Part shown: positions 5,925-29,915 of the stretch, piece after piece
Position numbering within the stretch: position 1 is the stretch's first letter
Layout: each line of letters starts with the position of its first letter
Source of the DNA: an uncultured Alphaproteobacteria bacterium
GTDB taxonomy: Bacteria; Pseudomonadota; Alphaproteobacteria; Rs-D84
DNA length: 32,000 nucleotides
Direction of reading: 5' to 3'
Assembly (NCBI GenBank): GCA_963931495.1
Contig: OZ007020.1
Span: 660,001-692,000, forward strand
Translations under genes and position numbers: made by a program
The notes under the pieces: model-generated
What the model saw: the letters and a program-made list of their open reading frames with translations, nothing else
Told to the model about the DNA's origin: nothing
Database searches by the model: none

Positions 5925-5932
5925 TTAAAAAC

Positions 5933-5960
5933 TTGCATTTGCCACTAGAAATATTATAAT
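5933..5960 (+). promoter_or_regulatory. Sigma70-type promoter for ssrA (TTGCAT-N16-TATAAT)
   Basis: TTGCAT lies at 5933-5938 and TATAAT at 5955-5960. The predicted TSS near 5967 would give an acceptor piece of about 81 nt. Confidence 0.55.
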
Positions 5961-5966
5961 TATCCA

Positions 5967-6380
5967 TGTCGCATGTGCGATGATGATTCTGAATCCGTTG
6001 CGGAATAGTCGTTTTGGACTGGGGGGCGGTACCCCACAGCTCCACCATTTTAAGATTCAGAAAAATGATTATAAATATACTGACTGGCGCGGATTGTTTT
6101 CAGTACGTCAGGCGTGTGTTTATAATCATTTTTATGGGGCTGACATAGTTTCGACAGGCGCAGTAAAGGCAAATCGGGTGAATCCGACATGGCGTCGTTA
6201 AAAGCCGAATAAAAACTGAATGGCGATAGAATCGCTGCGAACGACAATGTTCGCCTTGCAATGGCTGCCTAAATTGGCGTTTGGATGTAATCGGCAATTG
6301 TTGATTATGTCCGTTTAGCCTATTGCGGGGCCCCTGGGGGTGCCCGGCAACAGAAACCCCCAGATTGATAATTTTTACAA
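5967..6380 (+). ncRNA. ssrA: tmRNA, circularly permuted two-piece type (acceptor piece to 6047, intervening segment 6048-6135, coding piece from 6136)
   Basis: The T-arm is UGGGG-GGCGGUA-CCCCA (6020-6036), followed by CAGCUCC-A-CCA ending at 6047. GGGGCUG at 6136 is complementary to CAGCUCC and includes a G3:U pair (alanine identity), and GUUUCGAC follows. The tag ORF at 6234-6272 encodes (A)ANDNVRLAMAA-stop. The 3' boundary is approximate. Confidence 0.85.
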
Positions 6381-6630: not shown

Positions 6631-6658
6631 TAATTGTATTGTTCCGTGACGATTAATG

Positions 6659-6682
6659 GTTCCCGGAAACGGGAACTTTTTT
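6659..6682 (+). terminator. Intrinsic terminator
   Basis: GTTCCCG-GAAA-CGGGAAC followed by T6. Confidence 0.8.
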
Positions 6683-6688
6683 ATACCC

Positions 6689-6717
6689 TTGAAAAACAAT
6701 AAAAAAATTCTTATATT
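6689..6717 (+). promoter_or_regulatory. Candidate promoter of the Lon-like gene (TTGAAA-N17-TATATT)
   Basis: The -10 element ends at 6717 and the ATG is at 6728 with no SD. This implies a very short or absent 5' UTR. Confidence 0.4.
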
Positions 6718-6727
6718 TAGAAACGCT

Positions 6728-8485
6728 ATGAAGAATTATATTTTGCCTTTTCGTGATTTGGTTGTGCATCCGGGATTAACGGTTCCGGTGTATATTGATA
6801 ATCCTATGTCGGTTGCATGTATAGAAAGTGCAACAAAATATAACCAAAAACTGGTTATCACCGCACAGCATACTTGGTCATACCCAACCAGTGCCGCCGA
6901 TATATATGATGTCGGTACAATTGGCGACATTGCCCAAGTGTTACGATTACCGGATGGCACACTGCATGCAATAATTCGGACAACAGATGTGGTGAAATTG
7001 TCTGATATTACGGTTGAAAATGGGCTGTTTATGGCCGAAACAACACCAATTGAAATTAACGACGACAGTAATTTTGAACAGACAATCGCCCTGCGTGATA
7101 AAGTCGCTGAAAATATCCAGCAATTGGCCGGAACACGAAAGTTCAAGGTTGATAAATTGCGTAATATCGTCCAGAACTATCCGATGCCGGCGTTTATTGA
7201 TTCTGTGATTCAAACAATTGAAATGGATACTGATGATGCGGTGCGGGTACTGTGTGCACCGTCGTGGCGCGAAAAGTTAATGCTGCTGTTGGAACAGGTT
7301 AACTTGATGGCCGAAACCGCAAAAATAGAAGAATCAATCAATCGGCGTATTCATCAACAGATGGAAAACGGGCGTCGCGAAGCGATTTTACAGGAAAAAA
7401 TGCGCGCTATTCAGCGCGAAATGGGCGATGACAGCGAAGAAATGGATACCGAAAGTATTCGTAAACGTATTGAAAAATCGGCAATGCCAAATGACGCCAA
7501 AGAAAAAGCGTTGTCAGAATGGAAACGTATGCGCACCATGTCGCCAATGTCAAACGAAGGGGGATTGTTAAAAACATATCTGGACGAACTGTTGGCCATG
7601 CCGTGGGGGAAATCAGACACTGCGCCAATTGATTTGAAATCTGCACGTGCGGTGTTGGATTCGCAACATTCGGGAATGCAATCTGTCAAAGAACGCATAC
7701 TGGAACATATTGCCGTAATGAAAAAAACAGGCGGCAACCAGGGCAGCATCCTGTGCTTTGTTGGTGCGCCAGGCGTTGGTAAAACGTCGCTGTGTAAATC
7801 AATCGCGGATGCGTTGGGACGCAAGTATCAACGTATATCGTTGGGCGGTATATCTGATGAAGCGCATTTCCGCGGACATCGCAAGACGTATATCGGTGCC
7901 CAAACGGGGCGTATTATGGATGCGTTAAAACGGTGCAAGGCAAATAATCCGGTCATTGTGCTGGACGAAATTGACAAGATGGGGCGCGATTGGCGCGGCG
8001 ATCCAGAATCGGCGTTGTTGGAAATTCTGGACCCGGAACAGAACAAGTCTTTCCGTGACCATTATTTGGAAGTTGATTTTGACCTGTCAAACGTATTGTT
8101 CATTGCAACAGCAAACAGTTTGAACATGTCCAATGCACTGAAAGATCGTATGGAAATTATTGAAATTCCGGGGTACAGCGAAGATGATAAAGTTCAAATT
8201 GCACGTGAACATTTAATCGCACGTGCCGCGCATGATACGGGATGGAATCCAGACAACATTATCATCAGTGATGATGCACTGCGTCATATTATCCGTAACT
8301 ATACATCTGAACAAGGTGTGCGTGAATTGCAACGTGAATTAACCGCACTGTTGCGTCGGACATTGCTGGAACATGATGGTGAAGATGTTAAAACAGAATT
8401 TACCGAACAGAAAATTGATGAATTGTTGGCAATGCGTCATTCGGCTGTGTTGGCAAAGCGTATCGGTTTTGGATTGCGCGCATAA
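6728..8485 (+). CDS. lon: Lon homolog consisting of the Lon N-terminal domain plus the AAA+ module only; no protease domain
   Basis: LPFRDLVVHPGLTVPVYI (Lon N domain), Walker A GAPGVGKTS, Walker B VIVLDEIDK and GVRELQRELTALLRR are all colinear with E. coli Lon up to about residue 590. The ORF then stops (TAA 8483-8485) and tsaB starts at 8503. The start is moved to 6728 because the ORF-track start at 6656 would span the terminator at 6659-6682. Confidence 0.85.
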   Translation: MKNYILPFRDLVVHPGLTVPVYIDNPMSVACIESATKYNQKLVITAQHTWSYPTSAADIYDVGTIGDIAQVLRLPDGTLHAIIRTTDVVKLSDITVENGLFMAETTPIEINDDSNFEQTIALRDKVAENIQQLAGTRKFKVDKLRNIVQNYPMPAFIDSVIQTIEMDTDDAVRVLCAPSWREKLMLLLEQVNLMAETAKIEESINRRIHQQMENGRREAILQEKMRAIQREMGDDSEEMDTESIRKRIEKSAMPNDAKEKALSEWKRMRTMSPMSNEGGLLKTYLDELLAMPWGKSDTAPIDLKSARAVLDSQHSGMQSVKERILEHIAVMKKTGGNQGSILCFVGAPGVGKTSLCKSIADALGRKYQRISLGGISDEAHFRGHRKTYIGAQTGRIMDALKRCKANNPVIVLDEIDKMGRDWRGDPESALLEILDPEQNKSFRDHYLEVDFDLSNVLFIATANSLNMSNALKDRMEIIEIPGYSEDDKVQIAREHLIARAAHDTGWNPDNIIISDDALRHIIRNYTSEQGVRELQRELTALLRRTLLEHDGEDVKTEFTEQKIDELLAMRHSAVLAKRIGFGLRA

Positions 8486-10793: not shown

Positions 10794-10870
10794 GGGTTAG
10801 TAGCTCAGTTGGTTAGAGCGGAGCGCTCATAACGCTTTGGTCGTGGGTTCAAGTCCTACCTAACCCACCA
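10794..10870 (+). tRNA. tRNA with anticodon CAT: elongator tRNA-Met, or tRNA-Ile2 if lysidine-modified
   Basis: A 77-nt cloverleaf: acceptor GGGTTAG/CTAACCC with a paired 1:72 position (so not an initiator), anticodon stem GAGCG/CGCTT with loop CTCATAA, T-arm GTGGG-TTCAAGT-CCTAC, and an encoded CCA. Confidence 0.9.
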
Positions 10871-15740: not shown

Positions 15741-16247
15741 ATGTTAACAAGATTTTTACCAGTATTTGTATTAATGTTGGGGGTGCTTGGCATTAGTGCT
15801 GCGGACGCCGTATGCCCAGTGTGTACCGTTGCCGTTGGTGCCGGACTGGAAGGTATGCGTTTACTGGGCGTTGACGATGTTATCACCGGGATTTGGGCCG
15901 GCGGTTTGACATTATCGCTGTTTTTCTGGACGGCCGGGTGGTTAAAAAAACACAATGTAAAAAGTGTATTTTGGCAAATTATTGTCCCGTTTATAGTATA
16001 TTATGGATTGCTGGCCGCGGTATATGCATTACCAGGAATGACATTTGGTGCGGCAACGTTGTGGGGAATTGATAAATTCTTGTTGGGAATTATCGTCGGT
16101 ACCATTGCGTTTTATTTGGGGGCGCGTTGGTATGTAAAGATAAAGCGCGACAATGGCGGGCATGCAAAATTTGCATTTCAAAAAGTCGTCGTGCCATTAT
16201 CGTTCTTGATTGTGGCGACCATTATATTCTGGTTGATTACGATGTGA
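15741..16247 (+). CDS. Hypothetical polytopic membrane protein with an N-terminal CPVC motif
   Basis: An AAGGGGAA RBS is present. A signal/TM1 segment is followed by AVCPVCTVAVGAG, the only two Cys in the protein, and then several hydrophobic segments. Confidence 0.55.
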   Translation: MLTRFLPVFVLMLGVLGISAADAVCPVCTVAVGAGLEGMRLLGVDDVITGIWAGGLTLSLFFWTAGWLKKHNVKSVFWQIIVPFIVYYGLLAAVYALPGMTFGAATLWGIDKFLLGIIVGTIAFYLGARWYVKIKRDNGGHAKFAFQKVVVPLSFLIVATIIFWLITM

Positions 16248-16928: not shown

Positions 16929-16958
16929 TTGATTCAATTTGCGCAAATATGATAAAAT
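16929..16958 (+). promoter_or_regulatory. Candidate promoter of the Cys-rich two-gene operon (TTGATT-N18-TAAAAT)
   Basis: TTGATT lies at 16929-16934 and TAAAAT at 16953-16958. A purine-rich AGAGAGAAG run follows, then the TTG at 16981. Confidence 0.35.
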
Positions 16959-16980
16959 ACATGCCAGAGAGAAGAAAAAT

Positions 16981-19548
16981 TTGAAAACACGTGTTCTGAA
17001 TTTTTGGAAATGTTCCGTTGCAATTGGTATATTGGCCTTGGGTGGGGATTTCGCATCCGCAGATCCGGCACCAAACCCACGTTCGGGTGTGAATGTCGTT
17101 ACCGCATCTGCGAAAACAGCGGTTGCAACAGCCCGGAATGATGGGCGCGCCGTTCGCAATGTCGCAACGTCATCTGGTTCTGGTGATTCTGGAACAGTGA
17201 CCGGCCGTACAGCGGCGGGTACCGTATCGCGCAGTGCGACGTCACGGCCGTCTGTGACGGTATCGCGTTCGGCGGTTGCGGTTCCAACAACAAATCGCGG
17301 CACCACCACAGTGCGCAGTGCCACCGCACGTAATGCGGGTGTTACGTCCAGTGGAACGTCACGCGCGGCAACGTCGCGTGCGGCGGCGTCAAATGTTGTG
17401 CGCAGTGCAAATCACAGTGCCGGATCATCGGCGCGCAGTGCTGCACGCAGTGCAACAACCGGGGCATCGCGCGCATCAATGGCACGCGCCACGGCGGTGT
17501 TTGATGATATATCAAAAATTGGTGGCGGATACGCGGAATGTCGTGAAGCGTACGCAACATGCATGGATCAATTTTGTGCAAATGCAAATGATACATATCG
17601 TCGCTGTTTTTGCAGTGCACGGTACACGGATTTTCGCAATACAGAAAACGCCATTAATGAAGCGTTAAGCATGTTGGCGGAATTTGAAAACAATAACTTG
17701 TCGGCTGTTACAATGACGGCCGAAGAAGTTTCCGCAATGTACAGCGCAACCGAAGGCGAAAATGCAATCAAGCGCGATACCAGTGCCGCCGCCGCAATGT
17801 TAAGTGAAATTGGTGATTTATTGTCTGGTAACAGTTCTGCATCATCATCTTCGTCTGGCGCATCATTGTCGCTGGGGGTAATTGATTTTACATCTGATTT
17901 GGGCGATATTTGGGGCGAAGGTGGTTCATCCGTATTTGACAACAATTCGGGGGTTGATTTATCTACGCTGGAAGGCGAAGCGTTGTACAACCAGGCCAGT
18001 CGCCAGTGTGCCGAAATGGTTGCAGATTCTTGTGAAAATAATGCCGTTATGACAATGGCGCGCAGTTCGTATGGTATTTTAATTACGCAAGATTGCAATA
18101 CGTATGAAAAACGTATTAATTCACAAAAAGAAAGTTTGGAACAAACTATTCGTACGGCGGAAAAATATCTGCGCGAGGCACGTCTGGAAGAATATCGTTC
18201 ACATAATTCGGCCGATGTTAATGAATGTATTGGAAATGTGCGCACGGCATTACTGTCGGATGTTGCATGCGGTCCAAATTATGAAAAGTGTATGGACTAT
18301 ACCGGTGCATACATAAACCAGTCCACAGGCGAAGCGATTTATTCACCACGTTTGTTTGAACTGGAAAATTTAATAGTGTTGGCCGGGGTCAGCACGAATG
18401 AAGGTGCGACGAACACAACCGGGGATATATTGCGTGATAATCAGGATTTTGATAATTTCTTGGATTCGCGTCGTATGTTCGCAGAAACGGCATTGGATTC
18501 ATGTCGTGACATTGCCGAAGAAGTTTGGGAAGAATTTAAGCGCCAGGCATTGATTGAAATTGCCCAGGCCCAGGACGAAAAACTGGAAGAAGTGCGCATG
18601 TCGTGTGTCAGCACAATGGCAGATTGTTATGACACGCAAACTGGTGCGTTGCGTGATTTTGATACAACCACGGCCCAGGCCAGTGGCGCCGTTGGTACAA
18701 TTGCCGCCCGTGAAATGTGCGAAGACAAAGTTATCGCGTGTGCATCATTGTATGGCAATACAGACAATTGCACATTTGATGGAAATGGACATCTTGTAAA
18801 TGGTAGTGATACAGGGGCCGCGGCGGCGCAACGTTGTGGACTGTCGGCGTTGTTGGCGTTTGTTGATACGGTTGATACTGTGCGTATTACCGAAGGTTGC
18901 GCCGATGCGGTTGAAGCATATGTTACAGATTTGTGCACACCGACAACAGGTGATTATGGATTCCCATGGAACTGTCGCGACAAAGAAATCGGGTCAATCG
19001 CCAGTGTTAATGTTGAAGAGGCAAGTGGTGGACTGGATGCATCGTTGGCGGAAAACATGGTATACTATGCGCGCACCAATTGCATGATGGGTACCGATAC
19101 CATGAACGGAACAGGTTTAGCAAATCTGGATTCTGAACTGGAACGGGAACTAGAAAGCATACTGGACGACGTCAGTGAAGAAATGGATGTCATGTTGGGC
19201 GAAATATGTGAAGAGTTTGATGGATATTGGCTGTCCGCAGGATATGACAGTGCCAGCAACATGATTGCCGAACGACTGGGCGGCACAGATGGCGCACAAC
19301 GTTTGTTGGCATTCTATACAACGGCATACGGTGGCGATCAAACAGAAGATTGGGGAATGTGTTTAGAAAATACCACCATGGTACAATGCTTGAACTATAA
19401 CGATACATATGGCGAAGAAGTTGCGTCGTATGACATCACCAGCGATACATGTACTTTCACAGACCAGTGGTATATAAATCAATGCGAACAAGTGTTGGGC
19501 GGATATTATGAAAACAATACTTGTTATGCGCCGATGACAGACAGGTAG
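16981..19548 (+). CDS. Secreted protein with a basic Ser/Thr/Ala/Arg low-complexity tract and a large Cys-containing domain (family unknown)
   Basis: From TTG 16981 the protein opens with a Sec signal peptide, MKTRVLNFWKCSVAIGILALGGDFASA/DP. An R/S/A/T-rich region follows (about 17110-17500), then CREAYATCMDQFCANANDTYRRCFCSARY... The start is uncertain (TTG 16939 is also in frame). Confidence 0.7.
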   Translation: MKTRVLNFWKCSVAIGILALGGDFASADPAPNPRSGVNVVTASAKTAVATARNDGRAVRNVATSSGSGDSGTVTGRTAAGTVSRSATSRPSVTVSRSAVAVPTTNRGTTTVRSATARNAGVTSSGTSRAATSRAAASNVVRSANHSAGSSARSAARSATTGASRASMARATAVFDDISKIGGGYAECREAYATCMDQFCANANDTYRRCFCSARYTDFRNTENAINEALSMLAEFENNNLSAVTMTAEEVSAMYSATEGENAIKRDTSAAAAMLSEIGDLLSGNSSASSSSSGASLSLGVIDFTSDLGDIWGEGGSSVFDNNSGVDLSTLEGEALYNQASRQCAEMVADSCENNAVMTMARSSYGILITQDCNTYEKRINSQKESLEQTIRTAEKYLREARLEEYRSHNSADVNECIGNVRTALLSDVACGPNYEKCMDYTGAYINQSTGEAIYSPRLFELENLIVLAGVSTNEGATNTTGDILRDNQDFDNFLDSRRMFAETALDSCRDIAEEVWEEFKRQALIEIAQAQDEKLEEVRMSCVSTMADCYDTQTGALRDFDTTTAQASGAVGTIAAREMCEDKVIACASLYGNTDNCTFDGNGHLVNGSDTGAAAAQRCGLSALLAFVDTVDTVRITEGCADAVEAYVTDLCTPTTGDYGFPWNCRDKEIGSIASVNVEEASGGLDASLAENMVYYARTNCMMGTDTMNGTGLANLDSELERELESILDDVSEEMDVMLGEICEEFDGYWLSAGYDSASNMIAERLGGTDGAQRLLAFYTTAYGGDQTEDWGMCLENTTMVQCLNYNDTYGEEVASYDITSDTCTFTDQWYINQCEQVLGGYYENNTCYAPMTDR

Positions 19549-19552
19549 TAAT

Positions 19553-20980
19553 ATGAAAAAAGCAACACTGTTTTTGATATTTGTGATGTGTTTGTGCAGT
19601 GCAAATGATAATGCGTTCGCGCTGAGCAAGGATTATTCCAGTCTGGCCGGCATATGGTATGCCCCGGACATAAAAGACAATACATGCAAAACATCTGATG
19701 CGGCATCGGCAACAATTGGAACGCAAAAAAGTCGCTGTACGGGCGGCGTATATGATGTTGATGCGTGTGACAGTGCCACATCAGGTGGACAACATCCGTC
19801 GTTACTGATGATGGTTGCGCACACAATTGTTGAAAACGGCGCATATTTCTGTCCAACAACAATTCATGCCGACAAGGCAAAGAAAAGACGCCCATATACG
19901 TTATATAATCCGGCCGAACCAGGCGGTAATTCTGGGTGTATATGGCTGTGCAAACCCGGTTATACGGGTGACAGTTGTACCGAACGCGCACTGACGTGCG
20001 ACACAACCGAAATACGGCGCAGTGATTATGACGATTATACATTTGGCCCGGCGTCAGAATCGGCGTCAATTGAAAATTCCATTGGGATGTTTTATGGCAA
20101 GGTTGATGTAAAATGCGGGGAGCGTAATATTGCTGACGAACACGATATGATTCTGGCGATTTCAAAATGGCTGGACAGTGGTCGGGGTGTATTGGCCCAG
20201 CCGTTTGTTGTTCGTGCAAATCGTGTGGAATATAAAGATACATGGGCATTTCCAGAAGTTTATTCTGTGGGCAGTCCGACGTTATTGTGCAAATCAGGCT
20301 TTGTATCAAATGATGCCGGCACAGATTGTATCGCCGCCCCTGGCAGTGCATGTGAAGACAGCGAAAACGTTGAAACACCAGAAGATGCCGGCCAAAGCAT
20401 GTGTGATGGTTGGTCCATAGATGAATTTGATCCAGCGACGATGGAAATGGCGTATTCGGGTTCTTGTACAACCATGGGTGAATCTGTGGGCGGATATACA
20501 TTCAAATGCACCCAGGATGGATATGCCCTGAACCGCATCAACAGTCAATTAACATGTTCGGAATGTCCGGTCAGTGTACGGGTTGGAATTAATCCGGATG
20601 GTGAATGTGTTACATGTGACGTTGGTGAATATTTTGATGTTGATTCGCCAAATACTGGTTATTGTTCCGAAACATACGTGTTTACACGTCAGGATTTACA
20701 GTACGGTACAGCAGATCCAAATACCGGGAATGTTGAAGCCGAATGCTGGACAAAAAGCACCCCGTCTGAATATACAGAATGCGTGATACGGGCCGCAACC
20801 CCATATGTCCGCAGTGACGCCACCGTTGTTTACGAAGGGGTACAGACAGTGTCGGGAACAGTACAAACTCCTGTAAGATTACAACCAACGCCGGTAACAC
20901 TGTCAAATCCAACACTGCAACCAATCAGTGGGGTTACGGCGACATCAAATGCAACCGCGCAACAGATGTTGATAAATTAA
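19553..20980 (+). CDS. Secreted Cys-rich protein (475 aa) with an EGF-like Cys spacing and a Pro/Thr-rich tail
   Basis: It starts 4 nt after the preceding stop. The signal peptide is MKKATLFLIFVMCLCSANDNAFA. CIWLCKPGYTGDSC is present. The C-terminal tail reads TPVRLQPTPVTLSNPTLQP. Confidence 0.7.
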   Translation: MKKATLFLIFVMCLCSANDNAFALSKDYSSLAGIWYAPDIKDNTCKTSDAASATIGTQKSRCTGGVYDVDACDSATSGGQHPSLLMMVAHTIVENGAYFCPTTIHADKAKKRRPYTLYNPAEPGGNSGCIWLCKPGYTGDSCTERALTCDTTEIRRSDYDDYTFGPASESASIENSIGMFYGKVDVKCGERNIADEHDMILAISKWLDSGRGVLAQPFVVRANRVEYKDTWAFPEVYSVGSPTLLCKSGFVSNDAGTDCIAAPGSACEDSENVETPEDAGQSMCDGWSIDEFDPATMEMAYSGSCTTMGESVGGYTFKCTQDGYALNRINSQLTCSECPVSVRVGINPDGECVTCDVGEYFDVDSPNTGYCSETYVFTRQDLQYGTADPNTGNVEAECWTKSTPSEYTECVIRAATPYVRSDATVVYEGVQTVSGTVQTPVRLQPTPVTLSNPTLQPISGVTATSNATAQQMLIN

Positions 20981-23097: not shown

Positions 23098-23177
23098 ATG
23101 TTGGTATGACCAGATAATTTTTCTCTTGCGTGATATATGCGTTTTTTTCTAAGATGTTATATAAAAGAGGGAAAGAT

Positions 23178-26100
23178 ATGGGAAAAAAGCGCTGTTTTCT
23201 CAAGTTTTTTACACTGTTTGTGGGAGTGTTTGTTGCCGGCAATGCAATGGCGGCATATGACTGTCCGAATGTACGAAAATACACATCGTGCAACAGTGGG
23301 TATTATATGACAGGTGGTGTGACGACTGGGAACGACTGTCTGTCATGTACTAGTGTCAGCGCGACGGATTTGTCAGCTGCATGTGACCGAGACCCGACAA
23401 GCACAGAACTGTCAAATGCGCATGCCGCATCGGGTACAATCAGTGACGCAAGCAAGGCCTGTACTGGGAATCATACCGGTGGTGCGGGCGGTACGAACGG
23501 CAGCAGTGCATGTACAGGGTGCAGTTCGTATGGCGATTGTACTGGTGGAAAATTAACAATTAGCACATGCGCGGCAGATTACTATCATGACGCCGATACC
23601 AACAAGTGCCTGGCGTGCAGCGATTTAGGCTATACATCATCTGCGTCTGGCAATACTGGTGGCGCCGATGTATGTTATAAGTCATGTAGCAAATCTTGTA
23701 CACAATCTTGCACTATATCTGGCGCAGCGTCGTGTACGTATGGCACCAAAACAACGTCTGGGACACAATATTACGGGGGTGATTGTGATGCGGAGGCTCC
23801 TGGTAATTGTCCGATAAACAGCTGGTCTTGTAAAACTGATTATTATCATACCACCAGTGGCTGTTCAGCTTGTACGGGTGTTTCTGCAAATGGTGATATT
23901 CTGGAAACAACAGAGATAACCAATGGTAAGCGTGTTGAAACATGTACCGGAAATCATACCGGTGGTGCGGGCGGTACGGACGACAGCAGTGCATGTACAG
24001 GGTGCAGCGCATCGGTCATATCTTGTGAGTGTGACACCGGATACCATTCCGAAGGCGATGGTGCCGCATGCACGTGCGTGCGGGATTGCAGCACGTCCAA
24101 GGCATGCAGCGACGATTTTGCAGGTTATTCGGGCACATATAACGAATGCACACAGAATCAAGAAACTGAATGCTATAAATCGTGTTCGGTCGCGTGCAGT
24201 GGTAATGCAACGTGCCCATCAAACGCAACATGTACATATGACACAACCAAGACATATTCCGGCACACAGTATTATGGCGGCAGTTGCGATGCCACCGCCG
24301 GTACGTGTCCGGTGGAATCAGTGACGTGTAATGCCGGATATTACAAGAATCCCGGCGGCACGTGTTCAAAATGTGGTGGGAATCAATATTATTGTCCGGG
24401 TGATAACAAGCGTTATGGCGTGTCATCTGGGTATTATTCAACTGGTGGGGATTCAACAACGCGCACTGGGCAAGCGCAATGTGGTGGAAATGAATATTAT
24501 TGCGTTTCTGGGGTGCGTTATAACGTGTCATCTGGGTATTATTCAACCGGTGGGACCGAAACAACGCGCACTGGGCAAGCGGAATGTACCAGCGGAACAT
24601 ATTGTGTTTCTGGTGAGAAATACAGTTGCAGTTCGTTGTCTGGTGGTGCAAAACCCACCGGTGGAGAGTACAGTTCAGCGGCCAAGTCAACGGCCAGCAC
24701 AGCATGCAAGTACAAGGCACCAAACCCATCGGTACCAACAAACTGTTCATCAATAGACAGTAATACGATAACATATACCGGCAGTGCATGGCCAACGGTG
24801 ACATATTCGGTTACCGCCAAGGCCGGGGCACGTATATCACAAAATAACGTGGCCAGCCCAACATGTTCGCTGTGCGCGGCTGGAACATATCAGCAAAATA
24901 ACAACAGCACCGCGACGTCATGCAGAGTGTGCAGCGGCAACACATATGCACAAAAGACTGGCGCGGAATCGTGTGCTTCGTGCCCATCGGGATACACTAT
25001 CACGGGGACCGCGGCCAGTAACCATGATAACAAGAACGATTGCAAAATAACATGTTCCGCCGGTACAGTTGTGGCCACCGCGGATAAAACGTGTTCAACC
25101 CCATCCGGCAGTTGGTATTCATCGCAACACACGGTGTCGGCGGGATCAACATCTGGATCAAACAAGGCCAGTTGTGTGTCTGGATATGCAACGCCAAGCA
25201 CGACAACAAAAACAGACCATGATTCATATACTGATTGCAGAATAACATGTTCGGCCGGTACCCAGGTTGCCGCCGCCAATGCAAAGTGTACAACACCGAA
25301 TACCAATAACTGGTACACGAATTCGCATACCGTGACCCAGGGATCAACGTCTGGATCAAATGTCAAGGCGTGCGATACAGCGGACGGGTATGTAAACAGT
25401 GGCAGTACCACAGCAAATCACGCAGGATCAGCATCTTGCAAGGTGACATGCGCCAACGGTACATATGTAAAAACCGCCAATGCCGCATGTGAAGCAGTCG
25501 GCAGTGGATATTACCGTGAATCGCACGTTGTCGCATATGGCAGTACCAGTACACGAAATCAATGCAACACGGGATACGGCAATTCGCCGGCGGGTGCATA
25601 CCGACCCCAAGATTGCTATATGAATGTCAGTGGCGGGTATTTTGTTGAAGATGCTGGTGACGCAACCGCAACCAAGTGTGATGCCGGATACGCACGCGCA
25701 GCCCATACGGTTAATTACGGTTCCGTGTCATCGTGTAATATTTGTAAAGGCGCAACATGGTCGCACGCCGGTGCCGCCACATGTTCAAACTGTCCAACGG
25801 GTTATACATATAACACAACCAGTGGCAAAACAGATAATACGCAATGCCAGATAAGCGTGCCGGGTGGTAAATATGTCGGAACAGTTGGCGCTCAAGGCAG
25901 CACACTGGGGACATGTGTCGCCGGAACATCCAAGGCCACGCATATCGTGAATTATGGTTCTTTGTCTTCTTGCCCGGTGTGCGGAACCAACCAATATTCT
26001 GATGCGGGGGCCGCAAAGTGTATCGCATGTGATTCAGACTATGCAAACAGCGGAACATCTGCGTCCAGTCACGCCGGCGTTACGTCGTGCAAAGTTACCT

Positions 26101-29100
26101 GTTCCCCAGGAACACGCGTGGTTAATCCCAATGAACCATGTACAGTGCCGTCTGACAACACGTGGTATACACCAAATGAACATGTTGTTTCACAAACCAA
26201 GGTCAGTCCATATGAAACATGTCCGGGTGGTTATACAACGCGTGGAACAAATGCGACATCGCACGACCAGAAAACAGACTGTCAAATCAATTGTGCAGCC
26301 GGTACCCAGGTGGCCAGCCCTGATGCCCGATGCACAACACCAAATGAAGAAAACTGGTATACAGATCCGCATATTGTACGCGCAACAAAAACAACTGAAG
26401 ACGAAGGATTTCTGTTTGCGTGCTTGTCGGCAAATGGATATGTAAACGATGGCACGGTTGCGTCAAATCACGCAACAATCCGTTCGTGCATCGTAACGTG
26501 TCCAGACACAACATATGTCGCCGAATCAGAAGGCAAATGTATAACCATCGGAACTGGTTATTATCGCGCAGAACATACCGTGCGGCAAACAGAAACCAGT
26601 GAAAGCGAAGGCACTCCGCGTAATTTATGTCCCGGCCGGTATACTGACGGTGAACCAGTGGCCATAGAAGATGACTGTATCAGTTTCTGTGTCAGCAGTG
26701 ACGTAGACAATTCTACGTCTGTATCGGGCGAAATAAACTATGCATGGGCAAAATATGGTATTGATGATGAACGCACAATATTTACATGCCAGGCGACGTC
26801 TTGTTTGGCCGACTATTACCTGTTGGCTGGCAACAAAGGCAGTCCGAATGGATTGGCATCGTGTCCGGCGTGCGTCAGATACGGCACATGCGCCGGTGGT
26901 ACAGATTGGTTCGTGTGTAACCATGGGTATCACTATTCCGACGAAAATTATGACGTTGATACGATATGCGATCCCGATCCGTATGAAATCGTACTGAACA
27001 AAAACGGCGGATCTGGTATGGTGAATGGTGTTGACGACGCAGCAAATGCAACACAAATCTGTTACCATGGCGTTGTTTGCGATTTGCCGCCACGCAACAG
27101 TACGGAATTCCTGTTTGACCTTACCCGTGGTGATTCTTGGGGCTTTACCGGATGGGGGTATTCACCAACGTGTGACACCGGATTCTTCCAGGCATCTGTT
27201 AACGCACCGGGAACTTTGTACGCGTGCTGGATGCGCCATACGGTACAATGCGAAATTGGTGAATTCTATAATGCCGGCAAGTTTGAAGAATGTCCGTCTG
27301 GATATTACTGTACAGGCGACGGGTCATCACCGGTGGATGAAATTGGGTGCCGTACAATCTGTCCGGCGGGGGCATCTGGGTCTGATTTGGGTGCAACAGA
27401 TAACAAACAATGTTACTATACATGCCCAGACAAACTGTTGACCGGCGGTACCGCAACAAAGAACGAACAACATGTGTACTATGACGGCGCAATGTATCCA
27501 AAGTGTACGTACAACGTAACATGCGATGCGGGGTATGTCGCATATGGCGGTGGTACAGATGCCGCAACATGCTTGAAATGTGCCGATGGGCAATATTGCC
27601 CGGGTGGCAATGACCCAAGCGCCGTTGAAGAATGTCCCCCGGGTTCGTACTGTCCGGATGGCGTGATTCATGAATGTCCAAATGGCGGTCTGTCGGCCCA
27701 AGGTGCCAAGTATATAACAGACTGTTACAAAACAGGATTGGCGTATGTCGCAACGCATGGCGAAGGTACCCAGACATGCTATTACGATGATTCGCTGGGG
27801 ACATACAGTGCGAACTGTACAAACAAGATAATCAATATCTGTGACGCAGGTTATTGGTTGAAAACAGCATTGGTCACCAATCCAGACTGTGACCCGGTTG
27901 AAGTTGGGTATTACAGCGAAGGCACTGGTATAACACGCGAACAGTGCCCGGCATCTGGACTGACGGATGACAGAACATCAACAAAAATCCAAGACTGTTA
28001 CCAAAATGGCGTACGGTACATCGCCCAACATGGCGAAGGAACCCAGCGGTGTTATTACACCAGTGGGGCCGGAACCGGCGCGGTATACAGCAGCAACTGT
28101 GACACCAAAAAGATAGATGAATGTGATGGTGGTTACTGGCTGGTGGATGTTGATGATATTGAATGTTCTGCGGTGGACAAGAACTATTACAGTAACGAAG
28201 GCGAACTGGAACGGCATGCGTGTCCGGCCGATGGACTGACCGGGACAACGACCGCGGTTACAGTGTCCGAATGCTATAAAGAACACCTGCCCTATCCAGA
28301 TGCAGAACATGGCGAAGCGTATTACACATGTTCGCACACCAGTGGACTGGATGTGAATGCGGTATACGATACAAAATGTGGTGCACCAACGTTTACAAAG
28401 TGTGATGGCGGATACTACTTTGATGTATCGGCGCGGGTAAATGACTGTATAAAGGTTGGATACGGTTATTACAGTGTTGAAGATGACCTGGATCGTGATC
28501 CGTGCCCACGTGAAGGTAAAACACTGACCGAAATCAGCGCGTCCGTCACACAATGCTATCGCGAAGATATGTATTGCCCAATCATATGGAATGGCGAACA
28601 GACTGGTGATGGATATCAAACATGTAACTATGACGAAGAAGACGCGGAATATACCGGTTTCTGTCAGACGTGCTATGTGCAAGAATGTGACGAAACATAT
28701 GCACAATATGGCGATACTATGTGCATTATGTGTCCGGAAAATCACGTGTGTCATGATAAAATCCAGGAAACATGTTCTGCAATGACGGGTGGTAAATACG
28801 AATTCTCGGACATTGGAACGATGGATGTCGCAATGTGTTATAAAACATGTGATGTTGATATCGCAGGGCATGCCGCCGCAATGACTGGTCGTGACTATTA
28901 CGATTATCCAGATACGTGCGAAATTATCCGCTGTCAACCTGGATACACACTGCAAGACGGCGTATGTGAACCATGCCCAGCCGGCAGTTACTGTGACGGA
29001 ACAGTGACGCCAATCTTGCCGGGCGATGATATCAAGTCTTGTGCAGATTTGCCGGGCGATGGCGAATGGAAGTATTCTGACGAAGGTTCAGATGATCCAA

Positions 29101-29915
29101 CAGACTGCTATCGCATGTGTGAAGACTATGAAATAGAATATGGTACAGCGATATGCATCAACGATACTGAACAATATCCAACAGCGTGTCAGTATCGCGG
29201 TGAATCAATAACCGGAAATCCATGTCTGATTATTGATGGCAGATGTGTTGAAAGCGCGTGCGAATATGACTATGAAATGAAAAATGGCATTTGTGTACCA
29301 TGTAACCGCGAACACGCAATGGGATATCTGCCAACAGGGAACTGTCTGGTGGCATCGTGCGAAAAAGGTTATCACCCCAATGGGCAACAGTGCGAATCTG
29401 ATATCAAAGAATGCACGGTTGCTGGGACGCACGCACTGTACGCAGAACAAACATGGGATTATGCATTGAAGGCATTCGGACGCTGTGTAATCAAAGAATG
29501 CGAACCAGGATATCATCTGGAATCTAATGCATGTATAACAAATACATCTGCGTGCAAGGTTGAAAACGGTATCGGCGAACGTCAATGGGATGCAGAAAAT
29601 AACAAATGGGGCGAATGTATCGCAACATCTTGCAACCCAGGATATACCAGCAACCCAGACGAAATGTTTGAACATAACAAGCAATGCGGTGAATGTAAGA
29701 ACAAGTACAGTATATTGGGTGAAATCGCCGCCAGCAGTTATGTCAAAGAATGCGAAATCGCATCGTGTATGTATCAAGGCGAACTGTATGCGTTGCAGGA
29801 TAATGAATGTGTACCAATATGTCCATCAGAACCATATATTGATGAAACAGGTTCTGTACAACGAATTGGTAACAAGTGTGTGACAACGTGTCAACCGGGA
29901 TACATACCATGGTAA
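23178..29915 (+). CDS. Giant secreted Cys-rich repeat protein (2,245 aa) with ephrin-receptor-like/furin-like/VSP-like CxxC repeats and one Flg_new-like domain
   Basis: An AGAGGGAAAG RBS precedes ATG 23178. The signal peptide is MGKKRCFLKFFTLFVGVFVAGNAMA/AYD. About 10% of residues are Cys, and there are several internal repeat families. A perfect 22-nt palindromic terminator follows the stop. Confidence 0.85.
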   Translation: MGKKRCFLKFFTLFVGVFVAGNAMAAYDCPNVRKYTSCNSGYYMTGGVTTGNDCLSCTSVSATDLSAACDRDPTSTELSNAHAASGTISDASKACTGNHTGGAGGTNGSSACTGCSSYGDCTGGKLTISTCAADYYHDADTNKCLACSDLGYTSSASGNTGGADVCYKSCSKSCTQSCTISGAASCTYGTKTTSGTQYYGGDCDAEAPGNCPINSWSCKTDYYHTTSGCSACTGVSANGDILETTEITNGKRVETCTGNHTGGAGGTDDSSACTGCSASVISCECDTGYHSEGDGAACTCVRDCSTSKACSDDFAGYSGTYNECTQNQETECYKSCSVACSGNATCPSNATCTYDTTKTYSGTQYYGGSCDATAGTCPVESVTCNAGYYKNPGGTCSKCGGNQYYCPGDNKRYGVSSGYYSTGGDSTTRTGQAQCGGNEYYCVSGVRYNVSSGYYSTGGTETTRTGQAECTSGTYCVSGEKYSCSSLSGGAKPTGGEYSSAAKSTASTACKYKAPNPSVPTNCSSIDSNTITYTGSAWPTVTYSVTAKAGARISQNNVASPTCSLCAAGTYQQNNNSTATSCRVCSGNTYAQKTGAESCASCPSGYTITGTAASNHDNKNDCKITCSAGTVVATADKTCSTPSGSWYSSQHTVSAGSTSGSNKASCVSGYATPSTTTKTDHDSYTDCRITCSAGTQVAAANAKCTTPNTNNWYTNSHTVTQGSTSGSNVKACDTADGYVNSGSTTANHAGSASCKVTCANGTYVKTANAACEAVGSGYYRESHVVAYGSTSTRNQCNTGYGNSPAGAYRPQDCYMNVSGGYFVEDAGDATATKCDAGYARAAHTVNYGSVSSCNICKGATWSHAGAATCSNCPTGYTYNTTSGKTDNTQCQISVPGGKYVGTVGAQGSTLGTCVAGTSKATHIVNYGSLSSCPVCGTNQYSDAGAAKCIACDSDYANSGTSASSHAGVTSCKVTCSPGTRVVNPNEPCTVPSDNTWYTPNEHVVSQTKVSPYETCPGGYTTRGTNATSHDQKTDCQINCAAGTQVASPDARCTTPNEENWYTDPHIVRATKTTEDEGFLFACLSANGYVNDGTVASNHATIRSCIVTCPDTTYVAESEGKCITIGTGYYRAEHTVRQTETSESEGTPRNLCPGRYTDGEPVAIEDDCISFCVSSDVDNSTSVSGEINYAWAKYGIDDERTIFTCQATSCLADYYLLAGNKGSPNGLASCPACVRYGTCAGGTDWFVCNHGYHYSDENYDVDTICDPDPYEIVLNKNGGSGMVNGVDDAANATQICYHGVVCDLPPRNSTEFLFDLTRGDSWGFTGWGYSPTCDTGFFQASVNAPGTLYACWMRHTVQCEIGEFYNAGKFEECPSGYYCTGDGSSPVDEIGCRTICPAGASGSDLGATDNKQCYYTCPDKLLTGGTATKNEQHVYYDGAMYPKCTYNVTCDAGYVAYGGGTDAATCLKCADGQYCPGGNDPSAVEECPPGSYCPDGVIHECPNGGLSAQGAKYITDCYKTGLAYVATHGEGTQTCYYDDSLGTYSANCTNKIINICDAGYWLKTALVTNPDCDPVEVGYYSEGTGITREQCPASGLTDDRTSTKIQDCYQNGVRYIAQHGEGTQRCYYTSGAGTGAVYSSNCDTKKIDECDGGYWLVDVDDIECSAVDKNYYSNEGELERHACPADGLTGTTTAVTVSECYKEHLPYPDAEHGEAYYTCSHTSGLDVNAVYDTKCGAPTFTKCDGGYYFDVSARVNDCIKVGYGYYSVEDDLDRDPCPREGKTLTEISASVTQCYREDMYCPIIWNGEQTGDGYQTCNYDEEDAEYTGFCQTCYVQECDETYAQYGDTMCIMCPENHVCHDKIQETCSAMTGGKYEFSDIGTMDVAMCYKTCDVDIAGHAAAMTGRDYYDYPDTCEIIRCQPGYTLQDGVCEPCPAGSYCDGTVTPILPGDDIKSCADLPGDGEWKYSDEGSDDPTDCYRMCEDYEIEYGTAICINDTEQYPTACQYRGESITGNPCLIIDGRCVESACEYDYEMKNGICVPCNREHAMGYLPTGNCLVASCEKGYHPNGQQCESDIKECTVAGTHALYAEQTWDYALKAFGRCVIKECEPGYHLESNACITNTSACKVENGIGERQWDAENNKWGECIATSCNPGYTSNPDEMFEHNKQCGECKNKYSILGEIAASSYVKECEIASCMYQGELYALQDNECVPICPSEPYIDETGSVQRIGNKCVTTCQPGYIPW
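24372..24629 (+). repeat. Tandem in-frame repeat of roughly 105-108 bp (about 2.4 units) inside the giant gene
   Basis: CGGNQYYCPGDNKRYGVSSGYYSTGGDSTTRTGQAQ is followed by CGGNEYYCVSGVRYNVSSGYYSTGGTETTRTGQAE and then CTSGTYCVSGEKYSC. The DNA shares identical blocks, for example GTGTCATCTGGGTATTATTCAAC at 24420 and 24525. Confidence 0.75.
26982..27230 (+). other. Segment of the giant gene encoding a Listeria-Bacteroides repeat (Flg_new)-like domain
   Basis: YEIVLNKNGGSGMVNG...ICYHGVVCDLPP...GFTGWGYSP...GTLYACW fits the Y-x-V-x-F-x-x-NGG ... GY-x-F-x-GW ... LYA-x-W signature. Confidence 0.6.

Follow-up and report, generated by a model that had tools for sequence, protein, structure and literature searches.

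What might a gut bacterium with a genome of about 0.96 Mb do with a 2,245-residue protein that carries 184 cysteines and, in places, the cysteine spacing of eukaryotic receptor ectodomains? We address this question for a gene in a 32,000-nucleotide stretch of contig OZ007020.1 (positions 660,001 to 692,000, assembly GCA_963931495.1; hereinafter the window), which belongs to the chromosome of a Candidatus Enterousia-like alphaproteobacterium from the gut (order Rs-D84), a widespread, uncultured lineage. At 6.7 kb, the gene takes up 0.7% of this genome. The initial annotation, made from the letters of the window, had proposed a secreted protein of disulfide-dense, eukaryote-like repeats, part of a surface coat or adhesin system that may have been acquired from, or may mimic, a eukaryotic host. 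Our analysis places the protein, on its leader and C-terminal domain, in an undescribed, lineage-specific bacterial family; its C-terminal three-quarters are under strong purifying selection, its N-terminal head varies between strains, and we think it somewhat probable that it forms an exported surface fibre or adhesin.

The giant gene, its leader, and its family

The following features define the gene and its start:

23178..29915, + strand: gene for the giant Cys-rich protein (2,245 aa, stop codon included)
23165..23175, + strand: Shine-Dalgarno-like purine-rich AAGAGGGAAAG, ending 2 nt 5' of the ATG at 23178 (read directly)
23178..23252, + strand: predicted Sec-type signal peptide (aa 1-25, MGKKRCFLKFFTLFVGVFVAGNAMA, followed by AYDCP), recognized as the sole hydrophobic segment within a conserved leader

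Both the extent of this open reading frame (ORF) and the 49 cysteines within its first 500 residues had been annotated correctly; a direct count gives 8.2% Cys for the whole protein, which is also rich in Thr, Ser, Gly, and Ala. A longer version beginning at a GTG at 23130 is unlikely: the ATG at 23178 has AAGAGGGAAAG before it and, after it, the leader MGK.R.FL, which starts at this ATG and is kept in 50+ orthologs. The stretch 5' of the orthologs' start, read in frame as ..YKREE.MGK, recurs as in the window gene. A promoter and terminator scan around the gene gave no signal above shuffles. The same protein, 100% identical, is encoded on 22 contigs from several samples (the longest of 958,617 bp), and is thus not an assembly artefact.

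The sole hydrophobic stretch of the protein is aa 5-25, ending in A-M-A followed by A. A heuristic reading predicts a signal peptidase I layout, with basic residues K3, K4, R5, and K9, a 15-residue h-region FFTLFVGVFVAG, and A-M-A at positions -3 to -1. The signal-peptide-like character first ascribed to this leader is borne out by its basic n-region, h-region, and AxA site, all conserved family-wide, and cleavage by signal peptidase I is the probable outcome. A lipoprotein reading was rejected because the leader is devoid of a lipobox.

A first homolog search recovered 178 proteins, of which the best 120 are 1,235-3,792 aa long and nearly all unnamed, the only name among them being 'InlB B-repeat-containing protein'. 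Scanning one genome per GTDB species with a profile of the C-terminal domain (aa 1923-2245) retrieved 150 relatives, the best match being only 62% identical, so that the species of the window is not one of the representatives; the best 80 of the 150 belong mostly to Candidatus Enterousia or to uncultured Alphaproteobacteria, Proteobacteria, and Rickettsiales, and come from metagenome-assembled genomes (MAGs) of the human, chicken, mouse, and ruminant gut. The C-terminal domain is the most conserved part of the protein (41-71% identical in 43 homologs of the BLAST table). It lies at the extreme C-terminus in 39/39 aligned homologs and ends in a motif C..GY..W (G[YF]..W), in which the tryptophan is invariant across the 39; 33 of the 64 invariant columns of the alignment are cysteines. 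About 25 homologs share the whole C-terminal 1,000 aa, and the middle arrays vary. Complete GTDB orthologs (n=51) range from 1,568 to 3,768 aa, with a median length of 2,277 aa and a median of 7.6% Cys; two short ORFs also bear the C-terminal domain.

Most orthologs share a leader of the form M.K.R.FL...A.A/GY.CP..K.YTSC (consensus from 138 sequences; the slash marks the predicted cleavage site). The window protein has both this leader, as MGKKRCFLKFF...NAMA/AYDCPNVRKYTSCNSGYY, and the 323-aa C-terminal domain. By these sequence features it is a member of an undescribed, lineage-specific family that we call class A, delineated in this analysis and not in any curated database. Its hallmarks are the leader with GY-x-CP..K.YTSC, variable Cys-rich β-hairpin arrays, one Flg_new domain, and a conserved C-terminal region of ~1,000 aa. 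Class A genes also occur in several copies: locus L041 (2-19803) has two adjacent genes coding for >3,709 aa and 2,859 aa, locus L038 (549-12136) has three ORFs ending in C..GY..W, and at least six GTDB genomes have two class A loci.

A second family, class B, accounts for 125 of the 315 fetched proteins (P0161-P0299, P0018-P0100), often of ~1,313 aa. Its leader (Enterousia-type) and mid repeats are those of class A; its conserved C-terminus differs and is not Cys-rich (GLTTIG.GAGADEAGDCGR...YLRS..TTPSLNV...TTYSV[HYV]DDSM). Further afield, distant relatives with the 63-aa module described below (P0010, P0215, P0248, P0266, P0269, P0280, and P0287) have prepilin-type N-termini (GFTL[VI]E), and one of them, P0010, matches Pfam N_methyl; this suggests that the same modules are displayed on pilin-like anchors in other bacteria. 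A profile of aa 545-800 found 488 relatives among 1.84 billion cluster representatives, and nearly all of those inspected have bacterial leaders of the Enterousia or prepilin type. Word-indexed homolog searches, made with aa 545-800 and the C-terminal-domain profile, yielded a small number of short proteins without names, and cluster look-ups yielded names for 3/21 proteins.

Repeat modules and their domain class

Whole-protein self-BLAST gave only the diagonal; repeats were delimited by BLASTP of chunks against the protein itself together with iteration of hidden Markov models (HMMs). For the 92-aa and ~145-aa units, the iterated HMMs strayed into Cys-rich regions elsewhere in the protein, and clean copies alone were counted. 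From the N- to the C-terminus, the protein is organized as follows:

23253..24977, + strand: 'head' that varies between strains (aa 26-600); highest Cys density, up to 13.5%
23454..23879, + strand: ~145-aa repeat unit a (aa 93-234, 17 Cys; chunk BLASTP and HMM)
23937..24380, + strand: ~145-aa repeat unit b (aa 254-401, 20 Cys; chunk BLASTP and HMM)
24372..24629, + strand: GYYSTGG units (36 aa, 35 aa, and one partial copy; aa 399-484; read directly)
24852..24983, + strand: canonical ephrin-receptor-like (GCC2/GCC3-type) unit (aa 559-602, CSLCAAGTY...; sub-threshold in Pfam)
24978..26609, + strand: eight 60-64-aa (~63-aa) units (aa 601-1144, 4 Cys each; HMM iteration)
26958..27254, + strand: diverged Flg_new (Listeria-Bacteroides, or InlB B-repeat) domain (aa ~1261-1359; recognized via homologs)
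27717..28796, + strand: four ~92-aa units (aa 1514-1597, 1605-1689, 1697-1783, and 1791-1873; 6-8 Cys each)
28944..29912, + strand: family-defining C-terminal domain (aa 1923-2245, 323 aa), ending in CQPGYIPW

Much of the repeat layout first proposed holds. The two large N-terminal units, then put at ~160 aa, are present with 142-148 aa and 41-46% mutual identity; the GYYSTGG units of 35-36 aa were found where they had been placed, and are 70-73% identical to their counterparts in the homologs P0018 and P0065; and the 'three to four' ~92-aa units are four, spanning aa 1514-1873. The supposed ten or so ~50-aa units have to be replaced: HMM iteration resolves them into eight (aa 601-662, 665-728, 731-794, 795-854, 871-933, 950-1013, 1014-1076, and 1081-1144; unit E-values 1e-20 to 3e-30) that follow the pattern C.sGY...HD..dC.i.C..Gt.V.....C......WY..HtV..GsTS. 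The head is the region least covered by homologs, with aa 100-350 as its least conserved stretch.

To describe the protein as built from CxxC/G-T-Y repeats proved an overstatement. The spacing is present, but the canonical signature C-x2-C-x2-G-[TK..]-[YFW] occurs only three times (aa 563, 1465, and 1930), and plain CxxC is at the level of composition (20 observed, as against 14.9±3.7 after shuffling). What is enriched is C-x(2-3)-G-[YFW], with 23 occurrences against 5.5 expected. Most of the protein consists of family-specific, derived super-modules of 63, 92, and ~145 aa for which there is no Pfam model.

In Pfam scans, the best model for these modules is Ephrin_rec_like (PF07699), which scores 18.6 bits on the whole protein, 21.6 bits on aa 545-800, and 20.5 bits on aa 1500-1870 (at about aa 1570-1607), all below its gathering cutoff of 23.1. 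TNFR_c6 (19.7 bits on the canonical unit at aa 559-602), TNFR_ELAPOR1_6th, NCD3G, and EGF-like models are all weaker and likewise sub-threshold. Relatives in the family, in contrast, can score well above it. P0010, which aligns to aa 560-1074 of the window protein at 36% identity, reaches 292.5 bits with Ephrin_rec_like (best stretch 2534-2580), 149 with NCD3G, and 97 with TNFR_ELAPOR1, and 6/21 aligned homolog segments match PF07699 (best E 6.8e-6).

Structures were predicted from alignments of 21 sequences. AlphaFold models aa 545-800 as short β-hairpins (predicted local distance difference test, pLDDT, 89.0; predicted template-modelling score, pTM, 0.72), and aa 1860-2245 as all short β-hairpins (pLDDT 88.6, pTM 0.47). 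In a Foldseek search of the PDB with the aa 545-800 model, the best match is Mst1 of the Chlamydomonas mastigoneme (E 3e-4 to 8e-4, probability 0.92-0.99), the only one at E<1e-3; its TM-scores are low (0.2-0.26) because the superposition is limited to local module stacks. Non-significant matches include Elapor1, the Cys-rich domain of CaSR (3.4 Å over 56 aa), 4-1BB/OX40/RANK, and Eph ectodomains. The structure check sets β-hairpin models near the disulfide ladder of Mst1, with the other matches falling short of significance. Transitive evidence, from homologs, shows the modules to be of the ephrin-receptor-like/TNFR structural class, as the initial annotation had suggested from spacing, with the window protein itself remaining sub-threshold.

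The Flg_new domain was likewise recognized through homologs. Neither the whole protein nor aa 1190-1370 matches Flg_new (PF09479) in Pfam at E≤1, and an NCBIfam scan of the protein found nothing at E≤0.1, List_Bact_rpt (TIGR02543) included. However, aa 1255-1360 share 41-47% identity with segments of homologs (E 1e-19 to 1e-26), and the four that were tested (P0003 715-805, P0004 679-771, P0006 622-711, and P0023 524-619; 44-45% identity, E 1e-22 to 1e-26) are bona fide PF09479 (E 1e-12 to 1e-18). The single copy in the giant protein, annotated at 26982-27230, is therefore homologous to the orthologs' bona fide copies and has diverged below Pfam/NCBIfam detection; it keeps the pattern ..NGG.G...F.GW.....LYA.W and carries 6 Cys. 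As it makes up <5% of the protein, the NCBI name 'InlB B-repeat-containing protein' describes the family poorly.

Selection along the protein and its proposed role

Selection was gauged against strain L084, whose protein is 97% identical and of the same length. The synonymous rate (dS) is similar along the gene (0.03-0.05), and the nonsynonymous rate (dN) is tenfold higher in aa 1-600, where dN is 0.043, dS 0.053, and their ratio ω 0.82. Within the head, ω reaches 1.14 (aa 26-410), as against 0.11 for aa 601-2245 (Fisher p=1.6e-7 for head versus rest) and 0.03 for the flanking gpmI. The C-terminal three-quarters of the protein are hence under strong purifying selection. Across 12 strain variants, 85/121 variable sites (70%) lie within aa 1-600, the N-terminal 27% of the protein; a cysteine is involved at only 2/121 sites overall and 1/85 in the head, and some strains are without one block of 161-210 aa, in frame. 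The head retains its cysteine scaffold, and its loops and unit number change between strains.

The biology of the lineage bears on what such a protein may do. Enterousia (Rs-D84) genomes are ~0.75-1.0 Mb in size, without respiratory chain and tricarboxylic acid cycle and with incomplete glycolysis, and the organisms are inferred to be obligate symbionts or parasites that depend on a partner, by a means of contact that is not known (PMC12306168). The paper describing these genomes does not mention giant Cys-rich proteins (PMC12306168).

With moderate confidence, we read the giant protein as a surface fibre or adhesin that is exported by Sec and stiffened by disulfides, its shaft and base conserved and its head variable between strains; cleavage, disulfides, surface location, anchored end, and adhesion are all properties that we infer. 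Sec export of the leader-bearing chain would come first, and ~90 potential disulfides would then hold the modules in a stiff rod or fibre, much as the disulfide ladder does in Mst1. Shaft and cell-proximal base or assembly domain would come from the conserved C-terminal two-thirds, and the N-terminal ~600 aa would be an exposed head, in which inter-cysteine loops would be free to vary and the repeat number could shift between strains. The partner touched by the head might be a host surface, mucus, or another cell; alternatively, immune or phage pressure might act on the head. Genus-wide conservation, purifying selection on aa 601-2245, and a diversifying tip make the protein a prime candidate for a contact organelle; it may also offer a handle for enrichment, fluorescence in situ hybridization or immuno-capture, and identification of the host.

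Several observations weigh against this fibre or adhesin. Pfam/NCBIfam and motif scans found no anchor, secretion partner, or sorting signal in the protein: LPXTG, autotransporter, TpsA, type IX secretion C-terminal domain, PEP-CTERM, and RTX models are all without a match, the LPxTG motif is absent, and, in agreement with what had been noted at the outset, there is no transmembrane (TM) anchor or barrel model and no second hydrophobic segment. No dedicated transporter gene adjoins the giant gene in the window or in related loci. Folded, disulfide-bonded domains cannot use type V secretion, which leaves the route across the outer membrane unexplained. With a respiratory chain reportedly lacking in Enterousia, the usual quinone-coupled DsbB/VKOR route to disulfides is in doubt, and this raises the question of how such an anaerobe oxidizes about 180 cysteines per molecule. 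The head ω of about 0.8 is statistically indistinguishable from neutrality, so that selection there may be relaxed or mixed and positive selection is unproven. The mature N-terminus is conserved across classes, so that it, and not the C-terminus, could be the anchored end. Finally, Foldseek of the C-terminal-domain model against the PDB gave no significant match, the non-significant top list including ADAM22, Mst1, Elapor1, EphA2, NELL, Pfs25, and 4-1BB.

A bolder version of the fibre, speculative and rather unlikely in our judgement, would make these proteins bacterial 'mastigoneme-like' hairs that tether an obligately partner-dependent, non-respiring gut bacterium to its host cell, with hypervariable heads setting specificity. 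Were this true, the tethered cell might be epithelium, a protist, or another microbe; the ephrin-receptor-like module would either go far back in bacteria or have passed between such bacteria and stramenopile-type eukaryotes; and there would be an unrecognized route to ~90 disulfides per molecule in a cell without respiratory chain.

Of the alternatives, the one that survives best, though we still think it unlikely, is a protective, antigenically variable coat, comparable to the Giardia VSP coat or an S-layer, that would guard the cell against gut proteases, bile, and immunity instead of acting as an adhesin, with the variable head and the paralogs supplying surface variation. The Cys-, Thr-, Ser-, and Gly-rich composition, the invariant cysteine scaffold with its varying loops, the strain differences in unit copy number, the genomes with two, three, or tandem copies, and the leader shared with class B would all suit such a coat. 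However, whole-protein and segment scans found no Pfam match to VSP (PF03302), a C-terminal TM helix is absent, each slot has a single gene and the window shows neither a large switchable gene family nor an invertible element, and a 2,245-aa rod would be unusual as the building block of a closed coat. Coat and fibre are not mutually exclusive.

Less probable again is that the protein is not cell-attached and is set free in soluble form, as a binding protein, toxin carrier, or bacteriocin-like polymorphic protein. A signal peptide without an anchor, and one variable terminus opposite a conserved one, are what such a factor might have; however, polymorphic toxins vary at the C-terminus whereas here the N-terminus varies, the whole chain consists of structural modules, Pfam/NCBIfam scans found no enzymatic or toxin domain, and downstream lies a conserved α/β-hydrolase housekeeping block with no immunity-like gene.

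Genomic setting, descent, and known systems

The giant gene stands in ordinary chromosome, flanked by genes for release factor, Obg, a Lon-like AAA+ protein, TsaB, a PIF1-like helicase, dnaE, rsmH, gpmI, an α/β-hydrolase, a tRNA-editing protein, and YjbR. Other features of the window are:

1973-2049: tRNA-Arg(CCG)
5929-6364, + strand: two-piece (permuted) alpha-proteobacterial tmRNA (RF01849, 158.6 bits; RF04321, 122.5 bits)
10794-10870: tRNA-Met
16939-19548, + strand: exported-looking protein 1 (869 aa, 3.3% Cys; N-terminal third rich in Ala/Ser/Thr/Arg)
19553-20980, + strand: exported-looking protein 2 (475 aa, 5.1% Cys)

The tmRNA type is an independent pointer that places the window in Alphaproteobacteria. 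The two exported-looking proteins had been taken to form, with the giant protein, a single disulfide-dense coat or adhesin system. Of this proposal, an exported repeat protein of the disulfide type stands; the multi-gene coat is unsupported, because neither upstream protein has BLAST similarity to the giant protein and their adjacency to it is not generally conserved: in most relatives the giant gene sits between the genes for the PIF1-like helicase and the hydrolase. An operon with them was rejected on the same grounds. Neither upstream protein belongs to a Pfam/NCBIfam family. The pair itself is kept after dnaE-rsmH in other Enterousia genomes (L025, L028, L071, L082, and L083).

Within the same block, 15741-16247 (+ strand) codes for a polytopic membrane protein of 168 aa. 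Directly after its signal-like N-terminus comes C-P-V-C, with the only two cysteines of the protein, which is 79% identical in L028, also within the dnaE-rsmH block. Checked as a possible oxidoreductase, it gave no family match (no Pfam at E≤1), and its sequence makes it a candidate for an envelope thiol-disulfide protein, in a lineage with very Cys-rich exports. Elsewhere, the Lon-like gene at 6656-8485 (+ strand), with TsaB directly after, encodes only 609 aa, with substrate-binding, AAA+, and lid domains and no match to the Lon protease domain; Lon-like matches lying wholly inside related loci span about 1.8 kb. From ~3 kb past the 3' end of the window, the 958-kb contig has a phage- or mobile-element-like cluster (L001 21570-26738) with zeta-toxin/AAA_33-like, ParB_N-N6_N4 methyltransferase, DUF5681, and HNH genes.

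Across 78 related loci, the giant gene is followed by the hydrolase in 35/78, the tRNA-editing gene in 26/78, and YjbR in 10/78, and preceded by the PIF1-like helicase gene in 40/78; in the window genome, the dnaE-to-gpmI block sits between helicase and giant gene. Judged by these conserved neighbours, vertical inheritance of the gene within the genus is shown.

This bears on the third alternative, namely that the gene or its modules were taken from a eukaryotic host, or mimic ephrin-receptor/TNFR-like ectodomains so as to manipulate host signalling. PF07699 is held to have arisen in early eukaryotes, its rare bacterial cases being ascribed to horizontal gene transfer (PMC6993872), and the structural neighbours in the PDB are all eukaryotic. 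The gene is also more G+C-rich than its flanks, as had been remarked (48.6% vs 38-48% in neighbours). As a foreign sign, this fails: the excess lies wholly at codon position 2 (0.55 vs 0.33-0.43), because the protein is rich in Gly, Ala, Thr, Ser, and Cys, whereas G+C at position 3 (0.43) lies inside the neighbours' range (0.28-0.46) and the gene shares the codon quirks of the genome (GAA about 95%; GCT, CTN, and AGG avoided). A foreign origin by composition is thereby rejected. Recent capture from a eukaryotic host is unsupported, given also the conserved slot across the genus and the relatives, at least 150, in MAGs of related gut bacteria. PDB chains, searched by sequence and with the C-terminal-domain and aa 545-800 profiles, return nothing at E≤1, the 488 profile relatives are nearly all, where inspected, equipped with bacterial leaders, and the protein has about three canonical units only and no Eph or TNFR ligand-binding domain.

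One strong relative on the eukaryotic side is a 5,432-aa protein (P0191, GMH76975.1) from the stramenopile alga Triparma strigata, which the profile retrieves with E 2.8e-69 over 29 stretches. It consists of dozens of bona fide Ephrin_rec_like repeats (90 bits), which share the motif ...HD..DC.xC..G.Y with the bacterial 63-aa unit; identity is 26% over 607 aa, and the protein may be a contaminant of that assembly. This sole named eukaryotic relative is, however, a marine alga and not a gut host, and taken together we consider host origin or mimicry very unlikely. An ancient exchange of modules between bacteria and eukaryotes, in either direction, may have taken place. Either way, that bacteria use ephrin-receptor-like/TNFR-class disulfide modules on a large scale is relevant to the eukaryotic origin stated for PF07699. 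The reading as a metal-binding Cys-rich protein, whose cysteines would form zinc-ribbon or metallothionein-like clusters in place of disulfides, can be all but dismissed. In its favour, the host is an anaerobe without respiratory chain (PMC12306168) and there are 20 CxxC pairs; against it, CxxC is not enriched over composition, the export signal would take the chain out of the cytoplasm, the folds closest to the models are ectodomains with disulfide ladders, and Pfam scans found no His/Cys metal-site family.

Set against known systems, the giant protein is closest in its units to Pfam Ephrin_rec_like (PF07699, formerly GCC2_GCC3) and the related TNFR-like Cys-rich modules TNFR_ELAPOR1_6th (PF23091), NCD3G (PF07562), and TNFR_c6 (PF00020), whose C-x2-C-x2-G-x-Y spacing it shares at aa 563, 1465, and 1930, and whose small β-hairpin, disulfide-ladder fold class its models may share. 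It differs in never reaching the gathering score, which homologs such as P0010 far exceed, and in context, being a bacterial giant with a Sec leader and Flg_new and not a eukaryotic receptor ectodomain. Mst1 (PDB 8wa2, 9b4h, and 8tx1), the closest structural match of the aa 545-800 model, has a tandem of modules like the ephrin-receptor cysteine-rich domain that forms a disulfide ladder of ~11 Å spacing and makes an extracellular hair robust and sensitive to dithiothreitol (PMC10602792). There is no detectable sequence homology between the two, and Mst1 alone has nine immunoglobulin (Ig)-like domains and a glycosylated polyproline helix and polymerizes on cilia.

The giant protein has in common with Giardia VSPs and ciliate surface antigens, as exported proteins of a gut dweller, a Cys-rich (8-12%) and Thr/Ser/Gly-rich composition and a conserved cysteine scaffold with variable loops; unlike a Giardia VSP, it has no VSP match, C-terminal TM helix, or CxxC enrichment, is about four times larger, and shows no sign of a switching gene family. 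With the giant bacterial adhesins (RTX/BAP-type proteins of type I secretion systems, TpsA, and surface proteins of reduced-genome symbionts), it has in common its size, tandem modules, a variable region with conserved termini, and a host of reduced genome that is inferred to be partner-dependent. Such adhesins are typically Cys-poor and built from Ig-like or β-helix repeats; the giant protein departs from them in its Sec leader, its 184 cysteines, and the absence of any RTX, TPS, or barrel domain in Pfam/NCBIfam scans. It is best seen as one of a kind already known, the giant modular bacterial surface protein; what makes it of interest is the lineage that carries it, the eukaryote-type modules, and the disulfide problem that it poses.

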